IMG/VR virus record: IMGVR_UViG_3300021430_000595
Origin: a virus
Length of the DNA stretch: 64,000 bases
Direction: 5' to 3' (one strand)
Shown here one piece after another: positions 51,874 to 51,998 of this stretch. The number at the start of each line of letters is the position of its first letter. Position 1 is the stretch's first letter. Made by a program: the position numbers and the translations under genes. Below the pieces are notes generated by a model. The model did not search any database. It was given only the letters and a program-made list of their open reading frames with translations, and was not told the origin of the DNA.

Positions 51874-51998
51874 GGTGGGGAGGGTGGGATTCGAACTCCA
51901 CGACCACGAGGTTAACAGCCTTAGAAGTAACTAAGCTTATAGCCGTATGTACAGAAATTAAACCAGTAATACGTGCTCTACCACTGAGCTACCTCCCC
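51874..51998 (-). ncRNA. tRNA(GUU)-like RNA with a 50-nt Y-like module inserted in the anticodon stem
   Basis: GGGGAGG/CCTCCCC acceptor, GCTC/GAGC D-arm, TTCGAAT T-loop; CG[50 nt]AGG-CTGTTAA-CCTCG. Confidence 0.75.

Follow-up and report, generated by a model that had tools for sequence, protein, structure and literature searches.

The RNA gene at positions 51876–51998 on the minus strand of the window (the whole 64,000-nucleotide stretch of viral DNA analysed here) is best explained as a Y RNA written in tRNA order, that is, a partner RNA akin to YrlA that does not decode and has the opposite topology. We place the probability of this reading at roughly 65%. The chimera, in which a tRNA body carries a Y-like handle in its anticodon stem, is read in this way because RNAs with the same topology and the Ro60-binding motif adjoin rsr/Ro60 genes in Deinococcus, in Limnothrix and in a phage. 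The window belongs to a 142-kb phage record and contains 27 tRNA genes, a GOLLD RNA, a group I intron and a gene for SmpB. All of the features described below for the window are on the minus strand.

Structure of the chimeric RNA

The chimera is 123 nt long and consists of a tRNA body that has kept its native ends, together with the handle. Positions 1–71 of the Rfam tRNA model (RF00005) are matched by the minus strand from 51998 to 51876 with a score of 41.2 bits (E = 4e-7 in a 1-kb search), and the acceptor and T stems covary in relatives. ARAGORN makes no call for 51998–51876. An Rfam search of 51700–52700 (E ≤ 10) returned the tRNA match only, with no Y RNA, YrlA, intron or ribozyme family. 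The tRNA features present are a 7-bp acceptor stem, a D arm, a T arm and the elbow nucleotides; the canonical anticodon arm, with a contiguous 5-bp stem and a 7-nt loop, is absent, as it is interrupted by a 50-nt insert, and the arm measures 63 nt compared with 13 nt in the Rfam model. As read from the sequence, the 5′ strand of the acceptor stem (GGGGAGG; 51992–51998) pairs with CCUCCCC (51877–51883). The D arm (GCUC-AGUGGUA-GAGC; 51975–51989) is the same in all of the chimeras, phage and bacterial, and the T arm (GUGG(A)G-UUCGAAU-CCCAC; 51884–51901) has a single bulged A, with four of its five pairs covarying. The discriminator reads as A73 (51876) and is followed by CC (51875–51874) and then U, so that CCA is encoded here in part only.

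The insert (51922–51971) is located in the anticodon stem between nucleotides 28 and 29. The sequence-only reading had held that its removal restores a cloverleaf with the anticodon GUU, and both the coordinates and the description prove to be exact: once these 50 nt are taken out, CG is next to AGG and the stem and loop read CGAGG-CUGUUAA-CCUCG. In the chimera as encoded, the anticodon-type hairpin AGG-CUGUUAA-CCU plus CG occupies 51907–51921 (GUU at 51914–51916), and its CG pairs with the CG at 51972–51973. The insert runs from a UAUU linker through ACUGGUUU (the 3′ strand of P2) and an AAUUU internal loop to P1, which is made up of CUGU, an ACAU loop and ACGG; CUAU comes next, then the 5′ strand of P2 (AAGCU-U-AGU, with a bulge) and finally UACUUCUA. 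It is thus the handle of the neighbouring array rewritten as 3′ strand, loop and 5′ strand and closed by a loop, a circular permutation. This permuted order had also been recognized from the letters, and it is borne out by an exact match to the motif and by the minimum free energy (MFE) structure of the insert, which is this hairpin as computed with RNAfold. The stability of this hairpin is not above that of shuffled sequences (z = −0.28), and MFE folding of the whole chimera does not recover the cloverleaf (z = −1.5); the evidence for the structure is therefore comparative and not thermodynamic.

The array and the shared handle

The chimera lies 6 nt after the last of six handle-closed units that form an array at 52005–52597 (52597–52439, 52427–52364, 52353–52289, 52277–52211, 52180–52086 and 52073–52005). 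The array starts ∼30 nt past the stop codon of an ORF for a 690-residue protein (52630–54702) on the same strand as the chimera. The handle of a unit comprises P1 (NNNGG/CCNNN), an internal loop in which CUAY is opposite N-A/C-U-U-U/C, P2 (3–5 bp, a bulge of 1–2 nt and a further 3–5 bp) and UUACUUCUA. The pattern GGCUAY-N8-9-UUACUUCUA has six matches in the window and the same six in the whole 142-kb record; all of these are on the minus strand within 51922–52424 and none is expected by chance. The AAUUU found in the insert is the second commonest 3′-side internal loop in 66 array units. P1 and P2 differ in sequence and yet stay complementary across ∼66 distinct units from related contigs, and the P2 duplex energy in array units is −4.9 kcal/mol for true pairs versus −1.5 kcal/mol for mismatched pairs (p = 3e-17). 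By this comparison of units, the handle is a real structure. The hairpin CUUAG-UUACUU-CUAAG was considered as an alternative to P2 and rejected; it covaries between the window and L010 and is not kept in other units.

In the fold of the unit at 52180–52086 a T-arm mimic precedes a closed helix. In the first unit (52439–52597) the two halves GGCUAUGUG and GUCUUACUUCUA are ∼95 nt apart, with a structured insert at the position of the bulge that is kept in relatives. A box with the sequence GTTCTTTGAA occurs five times on the minus strand (52607–52616, 52194–52203, 49829–49838, 5949–5958 and 6191–6200), and the looser form GTTCTTTRAA occurs six times on this strand against 1.35 expected. The GTTCTTTGAA box is found 6–13 nt ahead of array units 1 and 5 and also upstream of GOLLD, and relatives have the same box ahead of their units; its function in noncoding RNA genes may be that of a promoter or of a processing signal. 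On the other side of the chimera, a GIY-YIG/NUMOD3 homing endonuclease gene (51203–51838) is inserted directly after it. This gene is not at this site in relatives such as L010, L005 and L011, which have the next conserved gene there instead. The 234-residue ORF listed as overlapping the tRNA arises artefactually from a GTG start further upstream.

Recurrence and covariation in phages

Searching other genomes for the chimera had been proposed as a check, and the outcome is positive: the RNA recurs, its handle is conserved and its stems covary. The first viral pattern scan returned mostly unrelated tRNAs. At least 11 distinct chimeras are found in related and unrelated phages, and they take two forms. 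In type A (the window copy, L010, L002, L005 and L016) the handle is at 28/29 and the hairpin AGG-CUGUUAA-CCU-CG, with its GUU, is fixed in all five, while the handle and the acceptor stem vary. In type B (L011, L235, L004, L014, L244 and L069:476–606) a 5-bp anticodon stem is kept and the handle is placed within the loop; there is no conserved anticodon, and L011 and L004 have the same body with different loop sequences.

In an alignment of nine chimeras 94% of the cells are paired and 15 pairs are changed on both sides, values that are reached by none of 500 shuffles. The changes on both sides include five of the seven acceptor pairs and four of the five T-stem pairs. The chimera is, on the strength of these paired changes, under selection. 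RNAalifold on an alignment of 15 sequences recovered the acceptor, D and T stems and did not recover the handle, the 3′ strand of which is misaligned through variation in length. A73 and the bulged T stem had been taken in the sequence-only reading to speak against a normal tRNA-Asn, but neither is diagnostic across the relatives: the discriminator is A, G or C, and the bulge is present in five of the nine aligned chimeras and absent from L005, L016, L014 and L069.

The chimera closes about half of the arrays beside close homologues of the 690-residue protein (23 viral contigs), and the remaining arrays keep their units without it. In phage G002 (complete, 388 kb) the RNA that comes first behind the protein gene is a type-B chimera. 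Several relatives encode CCA. On a phage fragment that has no TROVE gene, two ordinary tRNAs are followed by a further type-B chimera (L253:1626–1755), the motif of which is exactly the published GCCGAAG; a phage of this kind might supply the RNA alone and use the Ro60 of its host.

Chimeras beside Ro60 genes

The phage contig G001 has a gene for a canonical Ro60 with TROVE and vWA domains, followed by units with the architecture of the window array. These units carry UUCCUUCUA or UUACUUC, and have CGAG where the window has CUAU. Three chimeras are found among them: one of type B, one of type A and one reduced to a minihelix of acceptor and T arm. The type A copy (L069:763–889) has a GUU hairpin at the same site and ends in GCCA; the phage is unrelated and GC-rich. 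The minihelix form (L069:929–1032) is a 104-nt RNA that consists of an acceptor stem and a T arm only, with the handle between them, and ends in ACCA.

When 185,579 species genomes were scanned for GNCGAR and GGUUMC downstream of a D arm, 32 matches were obtained. Eight are true chimeras, with seven of seven acceptor pairs and a T arm; the other 24 fail this test and are mostly ordinary tRNAs plus a chance or Y-RNA-like motif. The eight are from four Deinococcus species, a Deinococcaceae MAG, another MAG, a Synechococcus MAG and Limnothrix. They carry the canonical Ro60-binding motif GNCGAAG…GGUUAC, the handle takes the place of the anticodon arm, and six of the eight end in ACCA. The Rfam tRNA model scores the scanned bacterial chimeras at 35–50 bits and reveals more tandem copies in the scanned loci. 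All four of the bacterial chimeras that could be placed by position, Deinococcus and Limnothrix among them, have an rsr/TROVE-type match directly downstream of them on their own strand; the match in D. pimensis is weak (19.3 bits, under the Pfam cutoff). The MFE structures of the copies from D. pimensis and from phage L253 show the acceptor stem, D arm and T arm with a long bulged hairpin at the anticodon position.

Fifteen chimeras, phage and bacterial, TerD-linked and Ro60-linked, align over their full length with GGCUAU placed under GGCCGAAG, and U-A-C is invariant or nearly so. In Deinococcus lacus the region upstream of rsr (L294:800–2750) has seven tRNA-model matches of ordinary length, a Deinococcus_Y_RNA match (44.8 bits) and two chimeras (1454–1601 and 1743–1865).

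The 690-residue neighbour protein

The gene directly upstream of the array (52630–54702; phrog_33734) encodes a protein with a helical N-terminal domain and a TerD-like sandwich at residues ∼473–639. Its family comprises 2401 clusters at 50% identity. Homologues with 75–96% identity are found on 23 viral contigs, and in 23 of 23 the array follows the gene. RNA arrays adjoin the homologues at all of the loci checked except that of Salicola phage SCTP-2, where the motif was not found near the homologue.

The neighbour had been described in the sequence-only reading as Ro-like, and this is not demonstrable: there is no TROVE match, hhalign gives a probability of 0.2%, the fold matches Ro60 with Z = 5.4–6.7 only, and a TerD-like domain replaces vWA. 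Pfam finds no domain in the protein, TROVE included, and a TROVE search of the 142-kb record gave no match at E ≤ 10. The hhalign probability of 0.2% is against a Ro60 alignment, and that against the Ro60 of phage G001 is 0.6%; phmmer and hmmsearch of the PDB with the protein gave nothing significant for Ro60. The AF2 model has a pLDDT of 94, and in this model residues 473–639 form a TerD-like sandwich (2qz7_B; Z = 13.6, r.m.s.d. of 2.4 Å over 150 residues). The TerD-like domain is at the place of the vWA domain of Ro60, and there is no C-terminal vWA domain with a MIDAS. Foldseek returns TerD only and the ESM Atlas returns TerD-named clusters only. When the modelled N-terminal domain is compared with 48,161 chains, a Ro60 structure, 2nvo_A, is ranked first (Z = 6.7, r.m.s.d. 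of 4.1 Å over 242 residues), a score within the chance range for helical repeats. Two more Ro60 structures are ranked third (9l5y_B; Z = 6.6 over 235 residues) and 18th (1yvp_A; Z = 5.4 over 254 residues), both with Z scores within helical-repeat noise. The three alignments are collinear with the TROVE ring, with Z in the chance range. 'Ro-like' is thus an unproven description, and the strongest argument for placing the protein in the part of Ro60 is the RNA family that is common to both.

Relation to YrlA and other known systems

In YrlA (RF02553) the helix that binds Ro60 has the motif GNCGAAN0-1G on its 5′ side, the V loop begins with a conserved YUAY, and the tRNA domain is permuted to T arm, closed acceptor and D arm (Chen et al., 2014; PMC4201824). 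YrlA and the chimera are both built from two modules, a bulged helix for protein binding and a domain that resembles a tRNA in its D and T arms (RF02553; PMC4201824; structure preprint 10.1101/312249), and the YUAY of YrlA corresponds to UUAC in the chimera, each directly after the 5′ strand of the helix. The genes of both are beside the gene of a partner protein, often as several RNAs, and both are found in phages. The two differ in topology. YrlA has its ends in the helix and its acceptor closed by a loop (V-T-acceptor-D), whereas the chimera has the ends of a tRNA and its helix is closed by ACAU; the proposal made from the letters, that the chimera is the topological inverse of YrlA with native tRNA ends and a loop-closed handle, holds. 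The handles also differ in sequence: the letters of GNCGAAN0-1G are absent from the window copy, which has CUAU in place of CGAA, although its GGCUAU aligns column for column with GGCCGAAG. The partner of YrlA is Ro60, whereas the neighbour of the chimera has no TROVE/vWA signature, and unlike YrlA the chimera also keeps an anticodon-type hairpin. The Rfam YrlA model does not match the chimera; the model is weak and gives its Bxz1 control 32.5 of 69 bits.

Distant homologues of the 690-residue protein (24–25% identity) in the Rhodococcus phage Weasels2 and the Rhodobacter phage RcXuper are adjoined by full YrlA-like permuted tRNAs. The Rfam YrlA model scores the Weasels2 unit at 26.4 bits, compared with 32.5 bits for the accepted YrlA that adjoins the gene for Ro60 in mycobacteriophage Bxz1. 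Unannotated Y-like RNA arrays beside homologues annotated as 'hypothetical protein' are available in isolated, cultured phages and could be used for experiments: Weasels2 (L143:4910–5290), RcXuper (L250:1–988), Xanthomonas phage XacN1 (L144:2520–2910) and MT835874 (L252:1040–1400).

The nearest published case is the YrlA of Mycobacterium smegmatis, which is cleaved by RNase P and then has CCA added (PMC4201824). The cleaved RNA, which is bound by Ro60, resembles the chimera in being a tRNA mimic whose 7-bp acceptor is open; it ends in CCA. It arises when a closed acceptor is cut open, giving a two-piece RNA in which the helix ends are open, whereas the chimera encodes the open acceptor in one chain. 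D. radiodurans Yrn1 (RF01053) is likewise a Y RNA with a T-arm mimic that is encoded upstream of rsr, and other Deinococcus species have the chimera topology at the locus where D. radiodurans has Yrn1. In Yrn1 the Ro-binding helix replaces the acceptor stem and holds the ends (PMC4201824), whereas in the chimera the helix takes the place of the anticodon arm or joins it. The Thermus phage phiLo encodes a Ro60 and Yrl RNAs (Yrl1/Yrl2) that form a RYPER-like complex with the PNPase of the host (PMC12135203). Both phiLo and Bxz1 resemble the window in having a phage-encoded ring protein and adjacent small RNAs with a conserved handle, but their RNAs carry CGAA, their protein is a canonical Ro60 with TROVE and vWA domains, and the tRNA-order form is not described there. 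Intron-containing and permuted tRNA genes (archaeal BHB introns; Cyanidioschyzon) share the insertion in the anticodon arm, and permutation there links two gene orders with one fold; the chimera differs in showing no sign of splicing signals, in having a handle motif that is common to free-standing RNAs and in its varying sites. Among the publications consulted, we found no description of a genetically encoded tRNA-order Y RNA or of a TerD-type partner.

Alternative explanations

The anticodon hairpin invites two readings in which the RNA is a tRNA-Asn. If it were a working tRNA-Asn with an extra arm, it would be charged by AsnRS and tethered by the handle to the neighbouring protein, perhaps as a bait or sensor for anticodon nucleases or as a tRNA passed to a repair or surveillance machine. 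The GUU hairpin does remain invariant in the five type A chimeras while the handle and acceptor vary, it recurs at the same site with a GCCA end in the unrelated Ro60 phage G001, and CCA is encoded in several relatives. The discriminator, however, is A, G or C, which is unfit for a single synthetase identity, the type B chimeras have the same or similar bodies with no conserved anticodon, and the phage has a separate tRNA(GUU) at 59435–59519. A 50-nt arm on the anticodon stem is also expected to clash with the ribosome, which counts against decoding. We therefore regard a working tRNA-Asn as unlikely. The ordinary tRNA(GUU) (85 nt, with a 15-nt variable region and G73) is unusual for a tRNA-Asn and its body is unlike that of the chimera. 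Alternatively, the handle could be an intron that is excised, perhaps by the 690-residue protein, with ligation of the exons to a normal 73-nt tRNA. Removal of 51971–51922 does restore a perfect 5-bp stem and a 7-nt loop, and the same is true of L069:763–889. Splicing is nonetheless very unlikely, because the insertion site varies by type (stem 28/29 or within the loop), excision from type B restores no consistent anticodon, no uninterrupted allele was found (the 22-nt exon junction has no exact match in 2.9 million viral contigs, exact matching only) and the handle also closes RNAs that stand on their own, from which its excision would be senseless. In addition, 50 nt is too short for self-splicing and there is no Rfam intron match (E ≤ 10), and in the bacterial chimeras the handle simply substitutes for the anticodon arm. 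The junctions CG|UAUU and UCUA|AGG, as judged by eye only, flank the base of P2 and are not two 3-nt bulges.

The tRNA body could also be processing punctuation that only recruits RNase P and RNase Z and so frees the upstream units from a polycistronic transcript, as would suit its position 6 nt after unit 6 and at the end of the array, where this clade has it. This leaves the conserved handle on a punctuating tRNA unexplained; about half of the related arrays keep their units without a chimera, and in G002 the chimera comes first, with no preceding unit for RNase P to release. We consider punctuation alone to be highly improbable. A dead tRNA gene struck by a mobile copy of an array unit would account for the failure of ARAGORN to call the chimera, for the bulged T stem of the window copy and for the homing endonuclease gene next door. 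Decay is unlikely, since the acceptor and T stems show compensatory changes across relatives, and the constant orientation and position of the handle and its recurrence in distant phages and, beside the partner gene, in bacteria also speak against a pseudogene, leaving this explanation barely credible.

Proposed mode of action

As a tRNA-order Y RNA, the chimera would be co-transcribed with the array across the 6-nt spacer and released in the manner of a tRNA: RNase P would cut the 5′ end, and the 3′ end would be trimmed and its CCA completed. The handle would dock it onto the 690-residue protein as the stems of Y RNAs dock onto Ro60. The tRNA body would then be the effector module, which could bind a tRNA-recognizing factor or gate or tether the protein, and the free acceptor end would shield the RNA from 3′ exonucleases. 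The M. smegmatis YrlA processed by RNase P and finished with CCA (PMC4201824) is a precedent for this free end. The probable role of the system, which we infer because the neighbourhood holds 27 tRNA genes and SmpB, is in the surveillance or repair of RNA while the phage infects its host. As for the route between the two topologies, one idea is that a YrlA-type unit was duplicated in tandem, as a stretch that begins halfway through one copy and stops halfway through the following one has exactly the order of the chimera. The sequence-only reading had proposed either an evolutionary intermediate between tRNA and Y RNA or a tRNA bait tethered to the Ro-like protein, both of which are conjectural.

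Docking alone does not explain the fixed GUU hairpin of type A, which hints at use of the anticodon loop. Because this hairpin is invariant, we keep open that the loop is recognized, with AsnRS, a modification enzyme or an anticodon nuclease as candidate readers. A related and doubtful proposal is that a chargeable or CCA-tailed tRNA-Asn body is permanently tethered to a Ro-like ring. There it would either lure or sense host defences aimed at tRNAs, anticodon nucleases for example, or serve as an adaptor by which tRNA-recognizing enzymes are recruited to the ring. If this tethered form were true, a class of Y RNA with a free acceptor would enter tRNA pathways in phages and bacteria, and the TerD-type family would be a second, unrecognized Ro60-like partner.

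Implications for Y RNAs and their partners

A natural form with an open acceptor, often with CCA encoded, means that the tRNA module of these RNAs is not just a stable fold. The module can be written in tRNA order and is presumably matured by the tRNA machinery, and CCA addition, aminoacylation and the binding of tRNA factors become directly testable. RNAs in tRNA order are miscalled as odd or intron-bearing tRNAs or are missed, and tRNA counts in phages and censuses of Y RNAs are therefore biased. Some genomes have this RNA family next to canonical Ro60, others next to a TerD-type protein family of more than 2400 clusters (at 50% identity), and this dual partnering points to an unrecognized ribonucleoprotein system in large phages.
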